From assembly GCA_963700285.1 (NCBI GenBank), contig CAVOXA010000001.1:1664001-1728000 (forward strand): a DNA stretch of 64,000 bases, given 5' to 3'. Both the position numbers and the translations under genes were made by a program. Positions 52,178 through 64,000 of this stretch are shown piece by piece (the first letter of the stretch is position 1; every line of letters starts with the position of its first letter). Source of the stretch: an uncultured Chloroflexia bacterium. Lineage in GTDB: Bacteria > Chloroflexota > Anaerolineae > JAAYZQ01. Below the pieces are notes generated by a model. That model was not told the origin of the DNA. It searched no databases and saw only the letters and a list, made by a program, of their open reading frames with translations.

Positions 52178-53806
52178 TCAGTTGCAGCCCTTGGGAACTT
52201 CCAGTGGATAGACATAATCTTCGGACCGGTCGTTGTACCAGATAGGCGACACAAACTGTTGGCCTGCCTCCATCCGCAGCGTGATGCTTCCCCGCCCCCG
52301 GGGAGGCACGTACAGAACAAACTGATGGTCGCCGGGAGAGAGCTGCAATAGCAGCCTGCCTGGGATATCGCCCTGCTTTGCGGCTACCGACCACTGGCCC
52401 GACCCTCCCCGAATCTGCTCGACCTCAAGGCCCTCTCCAATGTGGTTTTCGACGAGCAGAATCCCCTTCCCCGGCTGCGGCTTTTCGTACCAAGCGGGAC
52501 AGGTATCCTTTGGCTTGGCGGTCGGCGCCGGCGCCTTTGTGGAAGCTTGAGTTGGGGCTGGTACCTCGGTGGCGGCCACCGTAGCGGTTGGGGCCGTGAC
52601 CGCAGGCCGAGTAGCGGTCGCTTGGAGCGTCATCGTCGGCTGGGCTGTGTCGGCCGCGGCCGGTGCCAGGCTTGTGGTCGCCCTCGCGATGGGAGGCGCC
52701 GTGGGCGTCTCGATGGGAGGCGACGCCGACATGACGATGGGCGCTGACGTGACAACTAGCGTAACCGCCTGCTGCGGCGTGACGACCATGGTCACGAACT
52801 GGGGCGGCCGCGACCTGGTCCGCCCGCCCTCCGAGCCGCTGAGGGCGAGGTATAGGCCAACTCCGATCAGGAGGAAGAGCAGTGCGCCAATCATCGCGAC
52901 CAACAGGGGAACAGGGTTCCTCCTGGTCCGCCGAATGGCGGGGGTCGGGGTTGCGGGCCGGGGGGTCAGACCGAGTGCGGCCCTGCTCTCTTTTCCCTGG
53001 CGCAACGCCGCAGCAAACTCGCTGGCTGTCTGGAAACGGTCTGCGGGTCGCTTGGACAGGGCCTTGGCGACAACCTTCTCCAGCCAGCTCGGCAGCTCTG
53101 CATCGTTCCGCCGCAGAGGAGGCGGCGGCTCGTGCACCTGCTTGTACAGCGTCGCCATGGGGGTCTCGGTGTGAAAGGGAACGTGCCCGGTGAGCATCTC
53201 ATACAGCACGATGCCCAGGGCATAGATATCGGTACGGCCATCCGTTGGCTCGGCCAAGCCCTGTTCGGGGGACATGTACTCGGGTGTACCGATGCTGGCC
53301 CCCGTCCGTGTGAGCCGGGTGCTGGCATCCAGGGCCCTGGCAATGCCAAAATCGGTCAGCAGGGGGCGTCCGTCCCGGGCCAGCAGGATGTTGCCGGGCT
53401 TGACGTCGCGGTGTACGAGGCCATGCTGGTGGGCCTGGTCCAGGGCGTCAGCTACCTGCGCGGCCAGCGACACAGCGCGCTCTGCCTGGATCGGGCCGCG
53501 CTGCAGCAGGTCCTTGACCGATCCCCCCTCGGCATAGTCCATGGCCATGTACTGGCGGCCCTCCACTACGCCAGCGTCATAGACGTGCAGAATGTTGGGA
53601 TGGCTGAGCCGGGCCACGGCCCGCGCTTCCTGGCCAAAGCGGGCGATGAACTCTTGGTTGCGGGCCAATTCACCCCGCAACACCTTGATGGCGACGTAGC
53701 GGTTCAGCGATTCCTGGTAGCCCCTGTAGACCACCCCCATCCCGCCCTCACCGATCTGTTCCAGGATCCTGTAGGGGCCAAAGGAGGTGCCGATCAATCG
53801 ATCCAT
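52178..53806 (-). CDS. Receptor-like Ser/Thr kinase (TM, Pro/Thr linker, small Cys-flanked extracellular domain)
   Basis: GEGGMG, HRDVKPGN, DFG, GTPEYMSPE; TM segment; C-terminal CPAWY...GCN. Confidence 0.92.
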   Translation of the reverse strand: MDRLIGTSFGPYRILEQIGEGGMGVVYRGYQESLNRYVAIKVLRGELARNQEFIARFGQEARAVARLSHPNILHVYDAGVVEGRQYMAMDYAEGGSVKDLLQRGPIQAERAVSLAAQVADALDQAHQHGLVHRDVKPGNILLARDGRPLLTDFGIARALDASTRLTRTGASIGTPEYMSPEQGLAEPTDGRTDIYALGIVLYEMLTGHVPFHTETPMATLYKQVHEPPPPLRRNDAELPSWLEKVVAKALSKRPADRFQTASEFAAALRQGKESRAALGLTPRPATPTPAIRRTRRNPVPLLVAMIGALLFLLIGVGLYLALSGSEGGRTRSRPPQFVTMVVTPQQAVTLVVTSAPIVMSASPPIETPTAPPIARATTSLAPAAADTAQPTMTLQATATRPAVTAPTATVAATEVPAPTQASTKAPAPTAKPKDTCPAWYEKPQPGKGILLVENHIGEGLEVEQIRGGSGQWSVAAKQGDIPGRLLLQLSPGDHQFVLYVPPRGRGSITLRMEAGQQFVSPIWYNDRSEDYVYPLEVPKGCN

Positions 53807-53884
53807 ATCAAGTCCTCGCCGTGCCCTGCGACCCGTGATCTGTGGCCACATTCTATCACAGTTCAGGTGAACAGGCAAGGTCCC

Positions 53885-55918
53885 CTAGCGCGCCCAGCTC
53901 GGGTCGCCATCCCGGTGTGGTCCCTGAACCAGCGCTACCTTGTCCCTTCCGTCCAGTGGCACGGCCCAGATATCCGATGTATCCTGCTCATCGTTCCGCC
54001 CGTTGCTGTTGGAATCGAGCAACTGGGTAAAGGCGACCCAGCGGCTGTCGGGCGACCAGGCAGGCGTGCGCGCCCAGGCGTTCGCCGTCAGGCTCCGTGG
54101 GTCGCTGCCGTTGGCCCTGGCTACCCAGACGTCGCCCATATCCTCCTCGTCGACGGCGCCATTGCCATTGGTATCGCGGGAGATGCGGAGGAAAGCGACC
54201 CATTGGCCATCGGGCGACCAGGTGGGCTGCACGTCGCAAGCGGGCCCGCCCAGCCAGACCTGGCGCTGGCCTCCATCGCCATTCATGGTAAAGATATCCC
54301 AGTTGCTGCTCCCCTTAAAGCCTTCAGTATAGATGATCCGCCCATCGGGGGCCCAGTCAGGCCATTGGTCCTCGGCGGGGGTAAAGGTCAGGCGCGTGAG
54401 CTGGCCGTTGGCCTGACGGACGTGGATCTCCGAGTTCCCCTCGGCGGTGGTCGACAGCGCCAGGCGGCGCCCGTCGGGGTCCCAGCGCGCATAGTCATCC
54501 CAGGCGCCCGTGGCCACCAGTGGCCCCTGTCCCCCGCCGCTGCCGTCCATCGACCACAGATCGTAGCTGCCCCGCCGGTGGCTGGTGAACGCGATCCGGG
54601 CCCCATCGGGCGACCAGTCGGGCAGCCAATCGTTGGCGTTGTTGTTGGTCAGCCGGGCCACGTTGCCGCTCGTCAGATTCACGACATAGATCTCGAGGTT
54701 GCCGTGGCGGTTGGAGGTAAAAGCCAGCCGCCCAAAGTGTGCGGTAGGCGGCCGGGTTGGAGGCGGCGGTGCGTCCGTTGGAGGTAGCGGGGTGATTGGT
54801 TCCGCTGCTGTGGGGTCGGGCGGCAGCGGGGTGTGTGGCTCCGGCCCCGGCACTGTCCCCACGGCTGGCACCAGCGTCGATGTGGGGCGGGCAGGCGCCG
54901 GCGTGACCACGACGATCGACCTGGCGGCGGTGGGAGTGAGCCTATCCGCAGGAGCGCCGCCACCGGACAGCAGGAGGAGCAAGCCCAGAAGGATTACAAG
55001 GGCCGCCGCAGCGCCGGCCAGGATCCAGGGCAGCAGGGATCGCCGCCGGCCCGTTGGCAGGGGCCGCGGCCCGCCGGCCAGAGATGCCCGAAAGGCCCTT
55101 CGCAGCTCGCTGCCCGACTGGTACCGGTCCTGGGGCCGCTTGGCCAGCGCCTTCAGGATGACCTGCTCCGAGGCCACGGGCAGGCCCGGCCTGATCTGCC
55201 TCGGGGGCGGCGGGACCTCATAGATGACCGCGTGCAGGGTCGCATGGGGCGTCGAGCGGCGAAAAGCCGACCGGCCGGTGAGCATCTGGTAGAGCAACAA
55301 TCCCAGGGCGTAGAGGTCGGCGCGGTGGTCCACCGGCTGGCCTTCGGCCTGCTCGGGGGCCATGTACTCCGGGGTGCCCAGGATGATCCCGGTGCGGGTC
55401 AGGTGCAGGCCATCGGCCGCGCGGGCAATGCCAAAGTCGGCCACCTTGGCTGTTGCGTCCCGGGCCCGGAGCGGGTCGGCACTGAAGAGGATGTTGCTGG
55501 GCTTGATGTCGCGGTGGATCACGCCCTGGCCGTGGGCATAGTCCAGCGCCCTGGACACCTCGGTCACGATGCGCAGGGCTTCTGCCTCGTCCAGGGGACC
55601 GGCGGCCAGCCGTTCCTGGAGGGAGCCGCCCTCCAGGTACTCCATGGCGATATAATACTGCCCGCTGGCGACGCCGGTATCATAGATGTGGACAATGTTG
55701 GGATGGTTGAGCCGGGCTACCGACCTGGCCTCACGCAGGAAACGGGCCACAAACTCCTGGTCGTGCCCAAAGGTGGCCGGGAGGACCTTGAGGGCCACGT
55801 ACCGGCCCAACGATGGCTGCCGCGCCTTGTAGACGACGGCCATCCCACCGCGCCCGATCTCGGTCACGATCTGGTATGTGCCTAGCTGGCTGCCGATCCA
55901 TGATCCGTCAGTACTCAT
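53885..55918 (-). CDS. Receptor-like Ser/Thr kinase with extracellular TolB/PD40 beta-propeller
   Basis: [14 protein letters not shown]; repeated PxWSPDG; acidic DxNxNG loops. Confidence 0.92.
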   Translation of the reverse strand: MSTDGSWIGSQLGTYQIVTEIGRGGMAVVYKARQPSLGRYVALKVLPATFGHDQEFVARFLREARSVARLNHPNIVHIYDTGVASGQYYIAMEYLEGGSLQERLAAGPLDEAEALRIVTEVSRALDYAHGQGVIHRDIKPSNILFSADPLRARDATAKVADFGIARAADGLHLTRTGIILGTPEYMAPEQAEGQPVDHRADLYALGLLLYQMLTGRSAFRRSTPHATLHAVIYEVPPPPRQIRPGLPVASEQVILKALAKRPQDRYQSGSELRRAFRASLAGGPRPLPTGRRRSLLPWILAGAAAALVILLGLLLLLSGGGAPADRLTPTAARSIVVVTPAPARPTSTLVPAVGTVPGPEPHTPLPPDPTAAEPITPLPPTDAPPPPTRPPTAHFGRLAFTSNRHGNLEIYVVNLTSGNVARLTNNNANDWLPDWSPDGARIAFTSHRRGSYDLWSMDGSGGGQGPLVATGAWDDYARWDPDGRRLALSTTAEGNSEIHVRQANGQLTRLTFTPAEDQWPDWAPDGRIIYTEGFKGSSNWDIFTMNGDGGQRQVWLGGPACDVQPTWSPDGQWVAFLRISRDTNGNGAVDEEDMGDVWVARANGSDPRSLTANAWARTPAWSPDSRWVAFTQLLDSNSNGRNDEQDTSDIWAVPLDGRDKVALVQGPHRDGDPSWAR

Positions 55919-55977
55919 CGTTGTGCGCCTCAGACCCGAGGCTTGCTGGCTCTCTGGCTGATACGGCTGGCTGCCGA

Positions 55978-57186
55978 TCAGTAGTTGATGGTGAGCGTGT
56001 AGAGATGGTTCTGGTTCAGAGCACCTCCAGTATAAACCTGAAGGTAGTACGTACCGGCCGGCAGGTCCCGTATCCGCAGGTTCATCTGACCATCGCCTCC
56101 AGGTAGCTGGTTAATGTCTCTGTCGACTGACGACTTGTCTGTTCTACGCACCAGGACCTGGCCGTCAGCCTGATAGTTGGTGACGTCAACATTTAGCGTC
56201 GAGTTTCGAGCCAGTACGACGCGATAGTAGTCATTTGTGTCGTTGGGATAGGCACTGTAGGCCTGTCCCGGCCTCAAAGGACCGTATGCTGTAGTCATGG
56301 TATTAAACTGTTCGCAGAAAACGTTGCTCGCAGAGCACGGCGGCGCAAACTGAGGAACCTGATTGGGCTGACGTCTCAGCACTGGCAGAAAGGTACGGGA
56401 CTTTTCGGGTGCGGTCGTACCCAGTGTCACGTCGTCAACAAACAGGTTGCTGTTTGCGGAGCTGTCGGTCTCGGCACGGATATCCAGTTGGACCGTCTGA
56501 CCGGCGTAGGCGCTCAGGTCCACCACGCGTTTGACCCACGTATCCGTATTTGTTTCCGTACACAGGTAAAAGACATCCACAGCTGTAGCGTTATTGATGA
56601 CAACGCCACCAAGGTCATTTTCACAACTATCCGCAGAGGCAATCCACATCCAGAAGCCCAGAACCGCTTCTTGTGCATTCGCTGGAACAGTGACAATCTG
56701 CGCGATTGCCGAAATTTCGTCGTCAGCGCCGCCCAGCCATACGGCCCAACGGCCACCGTGCGGGGGGGTGAGGAGGACCTCCTCATCCAAGATGAGGGGC
56801 CAGCCCTGCTTGGAATACTCGTACCACGAACCATCGGGCCCATTCTCAAAACCACCGTCGACGATGCCGTTGACCGCGGCCGGGGCGCCTGCCGTTGGCC
56901 CGTCAAGCTGGGCCTGCTGGCCCGGTCCCTTTGGCAGGCTGTGAGGGTCGACCATGCCCTGCTCAGTCTCACCTACTTTCCGGCTTTCCCCAGTGGGCTC
57001 GGCAACGCTTCCAAGTAGCTGTGACGCCGCGTCGCGCAGGATGGGACCGTCGCTGTTCGCTGTGCCCTGCGGTCTGGCGCCTGTCAGGGCCTGGCTAGGC
57101 CCACGGGCAATGCCTGGTAGGCCGGCAAGGATCATCACCAGACTCAGTCCCACGCTTACTATGATGGCAAAACGCCCAAAGTTCAT
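55978..57186 (-). CDS. Secreted protein with jelly-roll (carbohydrate-binding-like) domain and C-terminal PPC-like domain
   Basis: Signal peptide; DGGFENG...W, VDLSAYAGQTV, FVDDV; FLPVLRR; AYGPL...YPNDTNDYY...GTYYLQVY. Confidence 0.7.
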   Translation of the reverse strand: MNFGRFAIIVSVGLSLVMILAGLPGIARGPSQALTGARPQGTANSDGPILRDAASQLLGSVAEPTGESRKVGETEQGMVDPHSLPKGPGQQAQLDGPTAGAPAAVNGIVDGGFENGPDGSWYEYSKQGWPLILDEEVLLTPPHGGRWAVWLGGADDEISAIAQIVTVPANAQEAVLGFWMWIASADSCENDLGGVVINNATAVDVFYLCTETNTDTWVKRVVDLSAYAGQTVQLDIRAETDSSANSNLFVDDVTLGTTAPEKSRTFLPVLRRQPNQVPQFAPPCSASNVFCEQFNTMTTAYGPLRPGQAYSAYPNDTNDYYRVVLARNSTLNVDVTNYQADGQVLVRRTDKSSVDRDINQLPGGDGQMNLRIRDLPAGTYYLQVYTGGALNQNHLYTLTINY

Positions 57187-57260
57187 GTCCTTCTCCTTTT
57201 CCTTTCTGGCTGCTGTGCTGTTGATGTCACGCTACTCTCTCTGCTCACGGAGGCCAGTTG

Positions 57261-59168
57261 TTAGGGTGGCGGCTCGGTTGGCAACCCGGGACCACCTGAT
57301 GGGGGCTTCCAGGTCAAGGTCCGTTCCTCGCTCATGGGACTCAGCGGCACCCCGGTGGGCCTGCCCTTGGCGTCCTCGCCCGTCTTTTGCATAACATGCA
57401 CCGACCACTGGAACTTGCCATCAGCCGACAGATCTTTTGCCAGGTAGTCGTGCTCGCTTAGGGTCCAGTGAGACTCCCGGGTCCACGGCGTCTCGTCCTT
57501 CCAGGTATCGGCCGGAGCAGCTGTAGGCGAGAAGGTCACCACAACCTCATAGTACACCTCTGGCGGCAATTGGCCCACAGGCTGCCAGGACAGTACGACC
57601 GTGTCCTGCGTCGTGAAAGCATCACCATCCTGCGGGCCCAGCAGGACCGGGGCGGCAAACTGCCCGCTAACCCTGGTGGGTGGCGCCGTCACGGTAGGCG
57701 CAAGCTTGGCCGGCGCTTCCGTCGCGGTTGGCGTGGGTGACTGGGTCGACGTGGGCGCAGCGGTCGTTGTCGCCGTCGGCGACGGCGTTGGCGGACTGGT
57801 GGCTGTATCGGCCGCCGTGCTTGTCGCCTGCCGAGTCGCTGGGGGCGGCGTTTCCGTGTCCTCTGTGGTGGGCGGCACGGAGGTCACCGCCGGTGAGGGC
57901 GTGGGTGCTGGGATCCTGCTCTCCACCGTAGGTGGTGCGGGTGTAGCAGACGGCCCGGGCAGGGGCGACGGGCCCGGCTCCTGGGCCGTCGCCGTCTGGG
58001 CAACGGCCGTCTGGGCCATGGCCACCGCCGTCGCCTCCGTCTGGGGAGCAGGAGGGGGCGGCCCGCCGATGCCCCCCAGGGCCATGACCAGGCCCGCCGC
58101 CAAGAGGATCAAGGCCAGGGCGCCCACCACCCATATCCCGACCGGCACCCGGCGCCTCGCCGGTTGCGGACCAACCGCGGCTCCAGCCCCGGCCGGACCC
58201 CCGGCCGGCGGCGCTTGTGCTGGCCCCCCCGGCACCGCGCCCGCGGCAGCCACGCCAGCCGCTCCCACCAGCACTGTGGGTGATTCCGGGGGCGGCGTGA
58301 CCGGCCGGGGGGGTGGGGCCTTGACCGGCTGGCCGGCCATGGCCCTCTCCAGGTCATCGGCAAAGGCCCGCACGGACGGGTAGCGATCCGCGGGCGCCTT
58401 GGCCAGGGCCTTGCCCAGCACGTATTCCACCTGCACCGGTAGATCCTGCCGCGTCCCGCGCACCGGTGGCGGTGGCTCGAAGGCGATCTTGAACATGAGG
58501 GCCGCCGTGTTATCGGCATAAAAGGGCACGCCGCCGACCAGCATCTGGTAGGCCACCACCGCCAGGCTGTACTGGTCGCTGCGGGCATCGGCAACCTGTC
58601 CCTGGGCCTGCTCTGGGGACAGATACTCGGGCGTTCCAATCACCATACCTGTGGCCGTCAGGCCCGAGTCCTGCACGGCCCGGGCGATACCAAAGTCGGT
58701 CAGGGTGACCCGTCCCGCGCGTCCGACGACGACGTTCGAGGGCTTGATGTCGCGGTGGACCAGCCCGTTGTGGTGGGCAAAGTCCAGCGCGTCGGCCAGC
58801 GGGCGCAGGATCGACATCACCTGCTTGGGCGCCAGGGGGCCCTGCCGCTGGACAAGGTTGGTCAGCGTCTCTCCGGCCAGGTACTCCATCACGTAATAGT
58901 ACCAGCCGCCCTCCTGCCCTACGTCGTAGATGTGAACGATGTTGGGGTGTTCCAGCCGGGCGGCGGCGCGCGCCTCGCGCAGGAACCGCTCGACCGAGTT
59001 CTGCTGCCAGGCCAGATGGGGGGCCAGTACCTTGACCGCCACGTGGCGGTCAAGGTTCGGGTCATAGCCCCGGTAGACGGTGGACATCCCGCCGCGGCCG
59101 ATCTCGTCCTGGATCCGGTACTTGCCCAACTGGGTTCCGACTAGTGATCTGTCATTGTTCATCCTCAC
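57261..59168 (-). CDS. Receptor-like Ser/Thr kinase with Fn3-like extracellular domain
   Basis: [19 protein letters not shown]; TM; APVLLGP...LSWQP...FQWSV. Confidence 0.92.
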   Translation of the reverse strand: MRMNNDRSLVGTQLGKYRIQDEIGRGGMSTVYRGYDPNLDRHVAVKVLAPHLAWQQNSVERFLREARAAARLEHPNIVHIYDVGQEGGWYYYVMEYLAGETLTNLVQRQGPLAPKQVMSILRPLADALDFAHHNGLVHRDIKPSNVVVGRAGRVTLTDFGIARAVQDSGLTATGMVIGTPEYLSPEQAQGQVADARSDQYSLAVVAYQMLVGGVPFYADNTAALMFKIAFEPPPPVRGTRQDLPVQVEYVLGKALAKAPADRYPSVRAFADDLERAMAGQPVKAPPPRPVTPPPESPTVLVGAAGVAAAGAVPGGPAQAPPAGGPAGAGAAVGPQPARRRVPVGIWVVGALALILLAAGLVMALGGIGGPPPPAPQTEATAVAMAQTAVAQTATAQEPGPSPLPGPSATPAPPTVESRIPAPTPSPAVTSVPPTTEDTETPPPATRQATSTAADTATSPPTPSPTATTTAAPTSTQSPTPTATEAPAKLAPTVTAPPTRVSGQFAAPVLLGPQDGDAFTTQDTVVLSWQPVGQLPPEVYYEVVVTFSPTAAPADTWKDETPWTRESHWTLSEHDYLAKDLSADGKFQWSVHVMQKTGEDAKGRPTGVPLSPMSEERTLTWKPPSGGPGLPTEPPP

Positions 59169-59270
59169 CTGCCTCTGTTTGGCGTCTAGGCTAACGTCGT
59201 CAAGGGTGACCGCTATGGACGCGATGCAATTCTAGTTACGTCCATGCGCGCTCAGGTCTCCGTCGTTGCT

Positions 59271-60437
59271 TCAACGCGGGATACCCTCCCACTTGAACCA
59301 CACCGGGTCGGAGTCGACCTGGCCCGGCTGCTTGCTCAGGTTGCGCAGGTTGGTCCCCCGGTCGTTCACCACCTCCATGACCCAGATCTGGCGCGTGGCT
59401 TCGCTCAGCTTGTCCGCCCGGTTGGAATAGAATGCGATCCGGCGGCCATCCGGCGACCAGGTGGGATGCTTGTCCCACTCCCAATCGTTCTGCGTCAGGC
59501 GCCGCTGGTTCTGGTCCCCGGGATCCAGCGTCTTGATATAGATCTCGTCGTTGGCGTTGCGGTTGGTCACCCAGGCCAGCCACCAGCCGTCGGCCGACAG
59601 CACCGGGTCCCAATCCTTGCGGTTGTTGACGATGATCATCTCCTTGCGGCCCGTGTCCAGCCACAGGCGGTAGATGTCCAGCGGCCTGTCGCTCACCTCC
59701 ACCCGCCACGCGCCGTCGGGCGAGGTCCGGTCGCGGACCAGGCCCCACTGGTATGCCTGCGTGTTGCACATCGGCGCCTGGTTCGAGCCGTCGCCGTCCA
59801 TGACCCAGATCTCGACCGGGCCACAGGCGTTGCCGCTGCGGGCGTCGCAGCGCTGCTGCCGCCGGAAGCCGATGACGCCCCGCTCCGCGTAGCGGCAGCG
59901 GGGCTGGGCCGGCGGCCTGGCCGTCGGCGGCGCCTCCTCCGTTTGCCCGGTCTCGGGCGCTGACGCGGTCAAAGCAGGCGCGGCGGGCGTGCCCGGTATC
60001 AGGGTGGCCGTCGGACTGACCTCGGGCGGGGTCGCCCCGGCCCCTGGCGGCGTGGCCGTGGGCGGTCGCGCCGTGTCCTGGGGTGTTGCCTCCACTGGGC
60101 CCGGATTGCCGGCCTCGGGCGAAGGGCTCGTCGGTGGCGTCTCGACCACAATGAGTACCGCCGTCCGTACCGACTCTACCGTACTCTCTACGAGCTCTTT
60201 TTCCGGTCGCTGGAGTAGCAGCAGGGCCAGTAGGGCCAGCAGCATCACGACCAGAACCGCGGCGATGCCGCCCACCAGCCCGATCAGTAACGTGGATGAC
60301 GAGCGGCGCCCGGGTCGCACCGAGGTGGGGGAGCGGCCCACCGGCTGCGCCCCCGACCCGGACGGCAGCGTCTGTCCGCACTGGAGGCAGTAATAGGCGC
60401 TCTCTGGGTTTTTCTTGCCGCATTCTGGGCAGTACAT
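59271..60437 (-). CDS. Zinc-ribbon + TM + PD40 repeat protein
   Basis: CPECG...CLQCG; TM; HPTWSPDG, DSDPVW. Confidence 0.82.
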   Translation of the reverse strand: MYCPECGKKNPESAYYCLQCGQTLPSGSGAQPVGRSPTSVRPGRRSSSTLLIGLVGGIAAVLVVMLLALLALLLLQRPEKELVESTVESVRTAVLIVVETPPTSPSPEAGNPGPVEATPQDTARPPTATPPGAGATPPEVSPTATLIPGTPAAPALTASAPETGQTEEAPPTARPPAQPRCRYAERGVIGFRRQQRCDARSGNACGPVEIWVMDGDGSNQAPMCNTQAYQWGLVRDRTSPDGAWRVEVSDRPLDIYRLWLDTGRKEMIIVNNRKDWDPVLSADGWWLAWVTNRNANDEIYIKTLDPGDQNQRRLTQNDWEWDKHPTWSPDGRRIAFYSNRADKLSEATRQIWVMEVVNDRGTNLRNLSKQPGQVDSDPVWFKWEGIPR

Positions 60438-60622
60438 GGTTCAGTGTCCTGAGCGAGTTATCCTCTTCAGGGATCGCGAGTAGCTGGCCGCTGGGCACCG
60501 CCGTGAACAGGCGGTGCTGGATGCTGCATCTGGATCCGGCGTGCTACCGTCTCCAGCACCGGCTCTTCAGGCCGGTGCGAGCGCCTGCTGGTAGCTGTTG
60601 GGCACAGTCCCTTCAGCCGTTT

Positions 60623-60669
60623 GTAGTGCGCGCTTCAGCGCGCTTCTGTGGCGCCAAAGCGCCTACTAC
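60623..60669. repeat. GTAG-family REP doublet
   Basis: GTAGTGCGCGCTTCAGCGCGC ... GGCGCCAAAGCGCCTACTAC (inverted pair). Confidence 0.65.
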
Positions 60670-60796
60670 GAACCTCTGTTCGTCTGCCACAGTAGGTTCC
60701 CGCCTGTCCCATTGCTTGACCGGTGGGTCAAGAGCCATAACGGGGCTGGAAAACCGGCCAGCCTGCCTCCAAGCCCGATTGATCGGGCGCCGCTCT

Positions 60797-60822
60797 GTAG
60801 CCGGGCGACTTTATCGCCCGGC
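60797..60822 (+). repeat. GTAG-family REP hairpin
   Basis: GTA-GCCGGGCGA-CTTTA-TCGCCCGGC. Confidence 0.65.
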
Positions 60823-60869
60823 GGTCTGCACCGGCTCCGATGGGCCGCCAGCCAGGCATCCAACTCGGG

Positions 60870-61083
60870 CCCCGCCCTGAGCCTCGAATCCTGAGGCTGT
60901 CCCCAGAACCTACTACACAGGGCGGGACCGGTTCATCTTTGGTTGGGCACACCACCCGGGCGGCGCCCCAACCGGGAACAGGCCTGGAGTTTTCTCTCTC
61001 TCGGCACTAGCGCCGCGTCCGTGAACCCGGCGCACCTGGCCTTTGAGGAACACACCTGGCGACCCCGCACACCGAAACCCGAT
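60870..61083 (-). ncRNA. DGR template-repeat 3' remnant (with IMH*) and structured downstream spacer
   Basis: 61055-61082 is identical to the VR1 3' end at 62083-62110, then diverges into hairpin-rich sequence (GCGCCG/CGGCGC; GGTTGGG/CCCAACC; CCCGCCCTG/CAGGGCGGG). Confidence 0.75.
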
Positions 61084-61953
61084 GAAATCCACGCCGACCT
61101 GGACCGGAAACACCAGGCTCTTCTTGGGATGCAGGACCAAGCGCAGCCGCGCCCCCAGGAACTCACGGATGGCGGCCTTCCAGTCCTGCAGTTGCGCCTT
61201 GTCGTTGCAAAAGAGGACAAAGTCGTCCATGTAGCGCAGGTAGGCGCGACACTTCAACTGGTGTTTGGCAAACGTGTCCAGCTCGTGCAAATACAGGTTG
61301 GCCCAGAACTGGCTGGTAAGGTTCCCGATCGGAAGGCAGCGCGGGCGCAGCGCCGCAAAGAGGCCCTCACCCGAGCCCGTCGTCGGGTAATCGCCCGGGA
61401 AATAGACGGGCGGGCACTCGCTGGCCTGGATCCCCGCGCCGCTGTCCAAGATCTGGTCCACCAGCCACATCGCCTCCTGGTCGGCGATGCGCCGGGCAAG
61501 CAGGCCGCGCAGGATCTGGTGGTCGACGCTCGGAAAGTACTTGACGACATCGCCATGAAAGGCGTAGCCGTACTGGCGCAGCCAGGCCTGGCACTGATCC
61601 AGCGCCCGGTGGGTGCCCTTGCCCTGGCGACAGGCAAAGCTGGTGTCGATGAAACGCGCCTCCCAGATCGGCTCGATGACCCGGCACAGCGCGTGGTGCA
61701 CGACCCGATCGCGGAAGGGCGCGGCGCTGACCAGCCTCCGCTTCGGCTCGTGGATGTAGAAACTGGTGTAGGCGCCGGGCTGGTAGCTCCCCCCGCGCAG
61801 CTCGGCTTGCAGGTCCAGCAGGTTGTGCTCCAGGTCAAACTCAAAGCTGGCCACCGCCGCCCGGTCGCGCTTGCCTCTGCGGGCGGCGCGGAAGGCCAGG
61901 TAGAGGTTCTCAAAGCTATGGATCTGTGGGTACAGGTTCTTGTACGTTTTCAT
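60913..61953 (-). pseudogene. DGR reverse transcriptase, C-terminally truncated and fused to the TR remnant
   Basis: PKRRLVSAAPFRDRVVHHA, GKGTH, DVVKYFPSVDH, LPIGNLTSQF, YLRYMDDF; RT-like sequence stops at VDFIGFR, followed by CAGSPG (VR/TR end). Confidence 0.88.
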
Positions 61954-62010: not shown

Positions 62011-62037
62011 TCTGAGGGGGGCAAAGCCCCCCTCAGA
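62011..62037. promoter_or_regulatory. Hairpin/cruciform downstream of the VR1 IMH (DGR homing element)
   Basis: TCTGAGGGGGGC-AAA-GCCCCCCTCAGA, perfect 12-bp stem about 40 nt after the target stop. Confidence 0.75.
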
Positions 62038-62075: not shown

Positions 62076-62203
62076 TCACTCTCCTGGCGACCCCGCACAC
62101 CGAAACCCGAGACTGATGTAGCTGTAACCCGGGTTGTGGCTGTACGCGGTCCGCCGCGCGGACGTAGTACGCATCGTTGAGCCACGAACCGCCACGCAGC
62201 ACC
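62076..62203 (-). repeat. Variable repeat VR1
   Basis: Codon-aligns with VR2; differences concentrated at positions 1-2 of NNC codons. Confidence 0.8.
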
Positions 62204-63605
62204 TTATACGAACCGCTGGCCGGCCCCGGCGGGTTGCGGTAGGGCGAGACGCCGTAGTAGCTGCTGCTGTACCAATCGTTGACCCATTCCCAGACGTTGC
62301 CGGCCATGTCCAGCGCGCCGTAGGGGCTGGCGCCGCTGGGGTAGCTGCCCACCCGGCTGGTGTCGCCCACGCAGCCGCTGTAGTTCGCCCGGCTGCAGTC
62401 CGGCGCCTGGTTCCCCCAGGGGTAGGTCCGCGCGCCGGTGCCGCGGGCCGCCTTCTCCCACTCGGCCTCGGTGGGCAGGCGCTTGCCGGCCCAGGTGCAG
62501 TAGGCCCGCGCCCCGTACCAGGTCACTTCGATGGCCGGGTGGTCGCCGTAGCCGGCATCGGCCTGCCAGACCCCGCCGGCCTGGTGGATGCGCACATCCG
62601 GATCGTCTGTGTCCAGCCAGGTGTCCCCCCCTCCTGCTGGTTGCCCCTGGCATTGAGAAATTCAGCGTACTGAGCGTTGGTCACCTCGTACCGGTCGATG
62701 GCGTAGGCGTCAAGGTACACGGTGTGCACCGGCTGCTCGTCGCTGTCGCCGTCGTTGCTGCCCATGGTGAACTCGCCGGCGGGCACGGAGACCATGTCGG
62801 CGGGCGGAGTCCGCTGTTCCGTGACAAAATCCCAAACCGGCCCGGCGGTGGTCGCCCCCCGCGAATCCCTGGCCACCACCTGCCAGTCGTAGTGCGCACC
62901 CTCGCTCAACCCGCCGGGGTCGCAACTGGCGCTGGCCACGTCGTTGCACACGAGCGCATCGCGTATCCGGCGTGCTGTCCCGGCCTCCAGGTAGACGTCA
63001 TAGGTCACCGCATCGCCGTCGGGATCGCCGCCGCTCCAGCTCAGCACCACGTCGACGCTCTGATCCGTGGCGCCGTCGGCCGGCGATGGAGCCCAGGGGC
63101 TGGTGGGCGGCTGGTTCGGGCGGTCCCTGCGGATCGTGGGCAGGTGTGCGCGGTGGATCGTGGGAAAGGTGGCGCGCAGGGTGTAGGAAGACGTGTTATT
63201 GAAACCCGTGGGCGTGTAGATATAGATGTAATAGTCCCCGGGATCCCCGGCGTAGTCCAGGTGGTATGGCGGCTTCCAGTCGCGGGCCACCGTATTGCCC
63301 GTCGATTGGTAGTACAGCAGCAACTGTACATCTTGACCGGTATGGTTGCTCAGGTCCACGGCGATCGGTCCGGCCCTGTAGAGATGGATGGAAAAGTAAT
63401 CCTTCTCGTCGTTGGGATAGCCATAGTAGGTCCGGTGCGAGCGCAGCGGGCCGTTGGCCTGCTGGTAGCTGTTGTTGGGCTCCACCTCCCAGGGGCCCTC
63501 AAAGTAGGCCAGGCTGGCCGCCAGGGACGCCGCCGGATAGGCCGGCACCCACCCCAGGGCCAGCAGTATGGTCATGGCCAGAATCGTTATCCCCGTTGGT
63601 TTCAT
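62076..63605 (-). pseudogene. DGR target 1: secreted PPC-like + Fn3-like + FGE-sulfatase (CLec) protein with two frameshifts
   Basis: Signal peptide; [49 protein letters not shown]; -1 at the G7 run 62625-62631 and +1 at ~62145; corrected end is [11 protein letters not shown]. Confidence 0.82.
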
Positions 63606-63660
63606 TGGCTGGCTCACTCCTCCTGTGAATTGCTATCGCCCTGTCTCACCGTGTCAGAAA

Positions 63661-63708: not shown

Positions 63709-64000
63709 TCACTCTTCTGGCGACTGCGCACACCGAAACCCGACGATGTTGTAGGTGCCGTCCAGGCTGTGGTGGATGCGGTTCGCCGCGCGGAGGACGT
63801 TCGCTTCGGCGAGCCACGCACCGCTACGCAGCACCTTAAACGACCCGCTGGCTGGTCCGGGCGGGTCGCGGTAAGGCGAGATGCTGTAGTAGTTGTCTTT
63901 GTACCAATCGTTGACCCATTCCCAGACGTTGCCGGCCATATCCAGCGCGCCGTAGGGGCTGGCACCGCTGGGGTAGCTGCCCACCCGCGTCGTGTCGCCC
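63709..64000 (-). CDS. DGR target 2 (3' part): FGE-sulfatase/CLec domain with VR2 at ~63709-63835
   Basis: [22 protein letters not shown]...RAANR...VGFRCAQSPEE*; 5' part lies outside the window. Confidence 0.88.
   Translation of the reverse strand, partial: GDTTRVGSYPSGASPYGALDMAGNVWEWVNDWYKDNYYSISPYRDPPGPASGSFKVLRSGAWLAEANVLRAANRIHHSLDGTYNIVGFRCAQSPEE

Follow-up and report, generated by a model that had tools for sequence, protein, structure and literature searches.

The 64-kb window analyzed here is the whole stretch of DNA under study and forms part of contig C1 of the source assembly (G000), which is metagenome-derived, 89% complete and 6.5% contaminated. Close to its right end lie the remains of a diversity-generating retroelement (DGR), a cassette for targeted hypermutation. 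They comprise the features below, in which the labels IMH, IMH*, Sp and NTE are taken from the cited DGR papers:

60440..60860, no strand assigned: dispersed palindromic repeats, presumably REP-like, with many copies in G000 and outside the DGR core (genome search)
60885..61054, minus: IMH*-like divergence and conserved structured spacer, Sp (alignment, fold)
61055..61083, minus: retained TR 3' end (Ile codon, GFRC, GC-rich stretch), with 28 nt equal to VR1 (sequence identity)
61083..61084, minus: probable deletion junction, RT TTC followed by TR ATC, with a loss estimated at 712-858 nt (thumb, avd, TR body) (relatives; contig of public run X3; protein P0002)
61084..61953, minus: DGR RT codons 1-290 (NTE, fingers, palm to the D-F of domain 7), without thumb (RVT_1 match; relatives)
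62011..62037, minus: 12-bp DNA hairpin after VR1, at the position of the DGR target-recognition stem (fold)
62076..62202, minus: VR1, the 3' end of target 1 (FGE-type C-type-lectin end), with +1 base near 62140 (alignment)
62076..63617, minus: target 1, with an N-terminal region, a weak fn3 match and an FGE-sulfatase domain (ORF list, Pfam)
63709..64000, minus: 3' end of target 2 (FGE paralog, VR2) (Pfam, alignment)

The RT open reading frame (61953-60913, minus strand) encodes 346 aa and matches Pfam RVT_1 at residues 71-294 (E 2.5e-16), with the catalytic YxDD of DGR-class RTs present as YMDD. The protein tracks its closest relatives up to codon 290 and then passes into the final TR codon, followed by GFRC, IMH* and the conserved spacer; on the minus strand, 61089-61055 reads GAT TTC ATC GGG TTT CGG TGT GCG GGG TCG CCA GG. 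The 28 nt at 61055-61082 are identical to the VR1 end at 62083-62110 (28/28), as a preliminary description of this DNA had noted, and the chance expectation for such 28-nt repeats in 64 kb is about 5e-7. That description was also correct in that the two copies diverge beyond the match in the manner of a TR and a VR (IMH*/IMH), as they do in 5/5 intact relatives checked, and in that the codon preceding GGG is ATC at the junction, CTC in VR1 and GTC in VR2. The RT frame reads through the spacer, remaining open for 52 codons past GFR until it meets a stop at 60913. These data show a direct join of the RT gene to the 3'-terminal 29 nt of its own TR, followed by the spacer.

The approximately 170-220 nt downstream of the join align with the spacers of intact relatives (at best 80% over 228 nt). 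The spacer had been described as hairpin-rich, which the comparison bears out: the predicted stems are conserved and both sides change in 12 of 28 pairs (14 sequences). Within this Anaerolineae DGR subclade it is strongly conserved, with two covarying stems and invariant single-stranded motifs, and the segment 60885-61054 (alignment A1) is a candidate for an RNA family model.

In order to evaluate what is missing at the join, 160 related loci were gathered (with a few duplicates across collections), 151 of which reach RT domain 7. Identity of the window RT to intact Anaerolineae-type DGR RTs is 62-80%. The codon before the domain-7 Gly is Cys in all 27 relatives of at least 62% identity, most of which read D-F-C-G-F, and the TRs of those relatives end in Asn-Ile-Gly-Phe-Arg-Cys. 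Since the RT of the relatives has Cys where their TR has Ile, the Ile in the window comes from the TR, which places the crossover between 61084 and 61083. Past domain 7 the relatives go on with [IL][YF]PTHRRL over at least 67 aa, and those with their stop in view carry 61-153 aa after residue 294; the window instead has translated spacer. Thirteen relatives have the intact order target-RT-avd-TR-spacer, their RT GFR and TR GFR being 712-858 nt apart (median 738), and the order target-RT-avd-TR is also that of an intact paralog in G000 (C10:223740-228800). Because thumb, avd and TR lie between the two GFR motifs in the relatives, the RT thumb, avd and the TR body have been lost here. This agrees with the loss of thumb, A-rich TR body and possibly avd proposed from the sequence alone, and the alignment with intact homologous DGRs suggested at that time puts the missing segment at an estimated ~740 nt. 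One intact relative (L018) matches BPP-1 bRT (8UB7; E 1e-56) in an alignment that extends ~50 aa beyond GFR.

In G000, a thumb, an avd (C10:228196) and a full TR were detected only in the unrelated C10 cassette, whose TR has a different 3' end. An A-rich TR matching VR1 was not found in the G000 assembly (89% complete), the C10 TR being no match. When an intact allele was sought in kin, the spacer was not found in 22 other genomes of the family or order and the same-genus genome held only RTs of 57-60% identity; P0005 is the translated intact TR of a close relative, but a different TR. The ancestral allele of the source strain was not found among the kin searched. The C10 cassette itself (L006, C10:223,740-228,800, plus strand) is an intact DGR with a 1,075-aa NTPase-FGE target, a 373-aa RT, a 110-aa Avd and a short TR; we take the NTPase to be NACHT-like. 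One extra base (+1) seems to be present toward the end of the cassette's VR, and its TR motif region appears identical in G001:C20.

A join of this kind in a metagenome-derived, incomplete and partly contaminated assembly could be an artefact, and misassembly had been named as the observation that would overturn the preliminary description. An independent 167-nt contig of public run X3, which may come from the source sample or campaign, spans 61022-61188 unbroken, with 1 mismatch and no gap, extending 105 nt into the RT side and 62 nt into the TR side. (A contig of run X2 reaches just 17 nt into the RT side and was not counted as bridging. Word shares are small, 0.05-0.09, in all 13 public runs, which makes these runs uninformative on habitat.) The identical join is carried by P0002, a 339-aa protein on another contig of 132,589 nt, with a tail that is frameshifted relative to the window. 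The two RTs differ at 10 of residues 1-290 and the neighboring gene at 0/232 aa (Fisher p 0.003); the join is shared by a second, diverged assembly. Moreover, the relatives have no long exact RT/TR repeat that could collapse, the longest run being 2-6 nt. An assembly error joining RT and TR is accordingly unlikely, and we give it hardly any weight. We consider just as improbable that the protein is a naturally short, still working RT whose C-terminus overlaps TR and spacer, as the 52 open codons beyond GFR might suggest. GFRC directly follows domain 7 in 0/151 relatives, so that the second objection foreseen, a natural C-terminus of this form, finds no example among them; the tail is frameshifted between the two strains, the TR body is gone, and the thumb of bRT contacts the template:primer duplex and the Thumb Ring RNA according to the available text of 10.1101/2023.10.23.563531.

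Target 1 is frameshifted near 62628 and near 62140, the latter inside VR1, and target 2 just beyond the window at ~C1:1728313. VR1 nevertheless has an IMH-like end and the 12-bp hairpin, while its target is frameshifted in the assembly. The DNA after VR1 folds with -18.6 kcal/mol, including the 12-bp stem at 62011..62037, which is a putative target-recognition stem by analogy with the BPP-1 system as presented in the accessible part of PMC3240598; the fold after VR2 is weak (-8 kcal/mol). The codon series at the position before GGG fits a template adenine as had been proposed. VR2 is not a current partner of this TR, as its mismatches to the retained TR end include non-adenine positions. Since it combines these differences with the lack of a 12-bp hairpin, only VR1 was a recent target.

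Several further observations concern the surroundings. The palindromes of 60440-60860 were noted also on C6, C7, C10 and C22, and such palindromes form tandem arrays elsewhere (~18 copies at 106-nt spacing in C10:1,338,100-1,339,960). At C10:1,496,540 (L005) an RT is cut at ~codon 38 by an insert that is presumably REP/RAYT-like. An orphan VR fragment with a hairpin lies at C15:143,400-143,650, joined to another GFRC-type end ~12 nt before GFR. A cluster of Ser/Thr kinase genes surrounds the DGR, at 52178-60437 and along C1 to ~1,765,000; the encoded proteins have Pro/Thr-rich linkers and PD40 or other C-terminal domains, and a 100-kb stretch of C1 around the DGR accounts for 9 of the 20 kinase genes detected in the genome.

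A second collapsed DGR was found in the same genome (L301, C14 ~612,250-613,000, minus strand). Its RT, present to ~codon 115, joins out of frame to the last 20 nt of a TR plus spacer, with no GFR match. This locus has an FGE target with VR and hairpin, and several frameshifts were seen by eye. Recurrence was then evaluated in the class by two surveys. A search for the TR motif in 401 genomes gave 94 matches, 92 of them distinct and examined; it needs three retained Asn codons and would miss joins of the type seen in the window. RT-avd-TR with the RT C-terminal end was found in 45 of these 92 cases, RT joined to avd in one, and an RT 5' part joined to TR in four (G142, G251, G330 and G000:C14); the remainder were other layouts, short contigs, VRs and chance matches. 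The RT-anchored survey (400 genomes), which is free of this bias, started from DGR-type RT matches ending before ~residue 330, picked by eye. Seven that lay at a contig end or gap and 9 with nothing but a frameshift were excluded, and 35 joins outside G000 were kept.

Six of these 35 assignable truncated RTs are joined to a TR, four to its 3' part (G142, G251, G259, G371) and two to an antisense TR in convergent layout (G228 and G354, of the same genus with different RT breakpoints). The assignment is confirmed by the locus's own VR in G228, G251 and G371, and supported by a loose VR match in G142, by motif and spacer in G259, and by likeness to G228 in G354. The other joins lead into spacer (3), avd (3), RT-internal sequence (2) and unrelated DNA (21). 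Relative to the TR Gly codon, the six surveyed joins lie, by eye, at about -42, -21, -7, -5, +9 and +15 nt; the offset is -3 in the window, -20 at C14 and ~-65 in G330. Under a length model with ~400 nt for avd plus gap, 110 for TR and 170 for spacer, the 6 TR joins among 12 in-cassette joins give p 0.007 and the sense layout alone (4/10) p 0.06; these values are post hoc, the kin are not independent and most of the genomes are short-read MAGs. A breakage hot spot near the TR 3' end is suggested by this comparison at most, and 21/35 truncations end outside the cassette. On the RT side the breakpoints fall at ~codons 18, 42, 115, 132, 146, 240, 255, 290 and 297 in different genomes. The window locus would thus be one case of a recurrent RT-to-TR collapse in the class, most cases of which use other RT breakpoints.

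The search for other RTs ending in F-x-GFRC, proposed earlier as a check on recurrence, gave for the region 262-346 4 matches among 74 candidates, of which P0002 alone is a GFR/GFR join. Among 50 matches of a representative-protein search, P0018 is an avd-to-TR join and P0028 has a natural GFRC followed by a normal thumb. P0007 is an RT-to-TR join; its junction query gave 9 matches, the 8 others covering at most 74% of the region. P0007 and P0018 were found by a TR-tail query and were left out of the statistics.

Other rearranged cassettes were seen alongside. In L159, L320, L323 and L276 RT 5' parts are joined to avd, with the TR intact where it is visible (L276, L320, L323). In L192 (G187:C408) a target VR is joined to the spacer through the end shared by VR and TR, and RT, avd and TR are absent; this layout is a deletion or an assembly collapse. 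In L020 (5600-7450) and L019 (2680-4150) an intact cassette is followed by more copies of spacer plus RT 5' fragment between small genes that we take to be toxin-antitoxin-like (HNH/antitoxin, BrnT/BrnA-like). The second copy in L020 begins ~7 nt before the TR GFR, a similar gene pair follows a shortened avd in L100, and the L020/L019 arrangement resembles a cassette array built on DGR ends.

We then considered how the window join arose. It lies exactly in register with the GFR motifs of RT and TR, which, judging from RT length, a random RT-side breakpoint would produce in about 1 of 1,000 cases. The match between the two motifs is weak in the 13 intact relatives (4-9/12 nt, longest run 2-6 nt). 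In 6 of the 13, the RT GFR ranks in the top 2-6 of 1,100-1,500 upstream matches to the TR 12-mer, and in the other 7 it ranks 28-494. Only 0-1 nt is exactly shared at the crossover itself. When all RT and TR 12-mers were compared with one another, the GFR diagonal was not the best, and GFR homology as sole predictor of the join was rejected. For the recombination between the two GFR motifs first proposed, the register is borne out and the position has to be shifted: the crossover is 5' of ATC, the GFR codons are TR-derived and the match is weak. Imperfect GFR pairing probably chose the upstream end, with weak homology, and such homology is dispensable for events of this kind, since the other RT-to-TR joins use no GFR/GFR match.

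We favor, with a probability of roughly three in four, the view that one DNA deletion, an estimated ~740 nt long and likely directed by imperfect GFR pairing, most likely inactivated a target-RT-avd-TR DGR. A break or a replication slip would have occurred at the TR 3' end and would have been resolved at one of the best upstream microhomologies, the domain-7 GFR of the RT. Without TR, Avd and thumb, no mutagenic cDNA could then be made for VR1, and the remains would have drifted after inactivation. The need for Avd is in line with the accessible part of PMC6182149, where bRT alone is inactive.

A different origin of the same join would be an accident of homing, in which a short cDNA begun in the GC-rich TR 3' stretch paired with its own TR and with the cryptic RT GFR and looped out the thumb, avd and TR body between them. 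BPP-1 offers precedents, as far as the accessible portions of the papers go: cDNA synthesis starts in the GC-rich TR end (PMC6182149), cryptic 5' cDNA integration occurs and short homology of at least 8 bp is enough (PMC3240598), and homing follows the direction of replication (PMC12875486). The joins moreover cluster near the TR 3' end, and the TTC before ATC could be an adenine-mutated AAC; it is equally the normal Phe codon of the RT. The window retains one TR adenine only. In a BPP-1 cDNA ~50% of the TR adenines are substituted (PMC6182149, same portion), whereas the retained TR codons are unmutated AAC or AAT, in comparison with their own VRs, at G000:C14, G251 and G142, and their being intact indicates that those pieces are not mutagenized cDNA. 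Intact Asn runs are also seen in P0007 and P0018, and in G228 and G354 the TR body is kept and the spacer side lost, an outcome that this route would not produce. We regard it as unlikely. An A-to-N signature was looked for in the RT flank as well; the one candidate, Gln285 (Lys in 8/27 relatives), lies at a variable site and was rejected. With the intact TR codons and the two antisense joins that lose the other side, a deletion at the DNA level fits best. Breaks at the TR end may come from the DGR machinery or from AAC repeats, or may be enriched by selection. A broader reading, a self-destruct built into DGRs in which the TR, having its GC-rich 3' end in common with the homing target, is sometimes attacked there by the element's own cDNA or homing and repair through a short upstream match deletes RT and avd at once, is speculative and rather unlikely. 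If true, it would explain the recurrent Anaerolineae joins, whose distal ends lie between about -65 and +15 nt relative to the TR GFR, and would show the site at which DNA is damaged by the initiation of homing.

The deletion could also have been selected as an off switch that locks a useful VR allele, the cutting of the TR blocking other RTs in trans as well. Two strains with 10 residue differences in their RTs have the fused allele in common, there are more joins into TR (6) than into the longer avd region (3), and truncation affects 3 of the 4 DGR-type RT loci detected in G000. Against this, no intact locked allele is seen, target 1 being frameshifted twice and target 2 once; breakpoints differ in every case; and over half of the GenBank DGR candidates were set aside as broken or incomplete (PMC5758913, in the part available). 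No fixed recombination sites and no sign of the reversibility of a programmed DNA switch were seen, the sequence being lost. We hold selection of this kind to be quite improbable, and the one-step switch freezing useful alleles that was first proposed is not supported, in view of the varying breakpoints, the irreversibility of the event, the frameshifts in both targets and the changes in the RT. The RT has Ser64, Cys206 and Leu220 where the relatives have Asn (31/31), Gly (31/31) and Val (30/31), and P0002 has the residues of the relatives. No frame change is found in 20 kinase genes, which total 15 kb; some of the frameshifts and substitutions could still stem from the assembly. In view of the target frameshifts, the RT changes at invariant sites and the 10/290 differences in the RT against 0/232 in its neighbor, the locus looks like one that drifted after inactivation rather than a preserved useful allele. 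The locus is very probably inactive in cis and, within what is assembled, in trans as well. We conclude that it is most likely a dead DGR, a deletion relic that reflects mainly gene decay with a possible breakage hot spot.

Compared with known systems, the locus has the YxDD RT and the structured spacer of a functional DGR and lacks the thumb, the full TR and avd; its targets stand with key machinery missing, which is the state of a degenerate DGR. The closest well-studied counterpart is the BPP-1 DGR (mtd-VR, avd, TR, Sp, brt; 8UB7 series), whose RT is related to that of the intact relative L018. Like BPP-1, the intact relatives have Avd, a TR and VR that differ at adenines and share an identical GC-rich end, divergence between IMH and IMH*, a hairpin following the VR and a structured spacer. 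Unlike BPP-1, the DGR of the window is chromosomal, of the order target-RT-avd-TR and with an FGE-type target, and its thumb, avd and TR body are deleted. Architecture B DGRs (Wu et al. 2018, PMC5758913) consist of avd, TR and RT only, as do the core parts of the relatives; the figure legend does not list the order RT-avd-TR under B1-B3, and Supplementary Figure S3 may have it.

Inactivated DGRs are reported as frequent in the available portion of PMC5758913, and RT-to-TR joins are not described in the accessible parts of 10.1101/2020.04.01.020958, PMC12629997 and PMC12875486. In the titles and beginnings of abstracts searched, no report of an RT-to-TR junction or of a TR breakpoint hot spot was found; loci of this kind may appear in the supplements to Wu 2018 and Dore 2024. 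The accessible part of Dore et al. 2024 (PMC10907252) presents degenerate loci in multicellular bacteria, filamentous Chloroflexi and FGE/STAND targets among them, and contains no description of RT-to-TR junctions or breakpoint positions. As in that study of clade 5 DGRs, where one genome has a complete locus beside degenerate ones with missing or pseudogenized machinery, G000 combines a complete locus with degenerate ones. In contrast to that study, where each class retains a complete locus, a matching TR was not found in G000 (89% complete). The genome holds the intact cassette on C10, presumably NACHT-like-FGE, and three truncated RT loci.

Broken DGRs are common and known, and the case in the window is unusually well resolved, with the lost segment, the base of the crossover and a second strain all in hand. 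A new lead is the possible TR hot spot, with truncated RTs suggestively joined to their own TR 3' end more frequently than expected from length. Should the clustering persist in a larger sample and depend on an active RT, natural deletion scars would be a genomic footprint of initiation and would measure how DGR activity limits its own lifetime.
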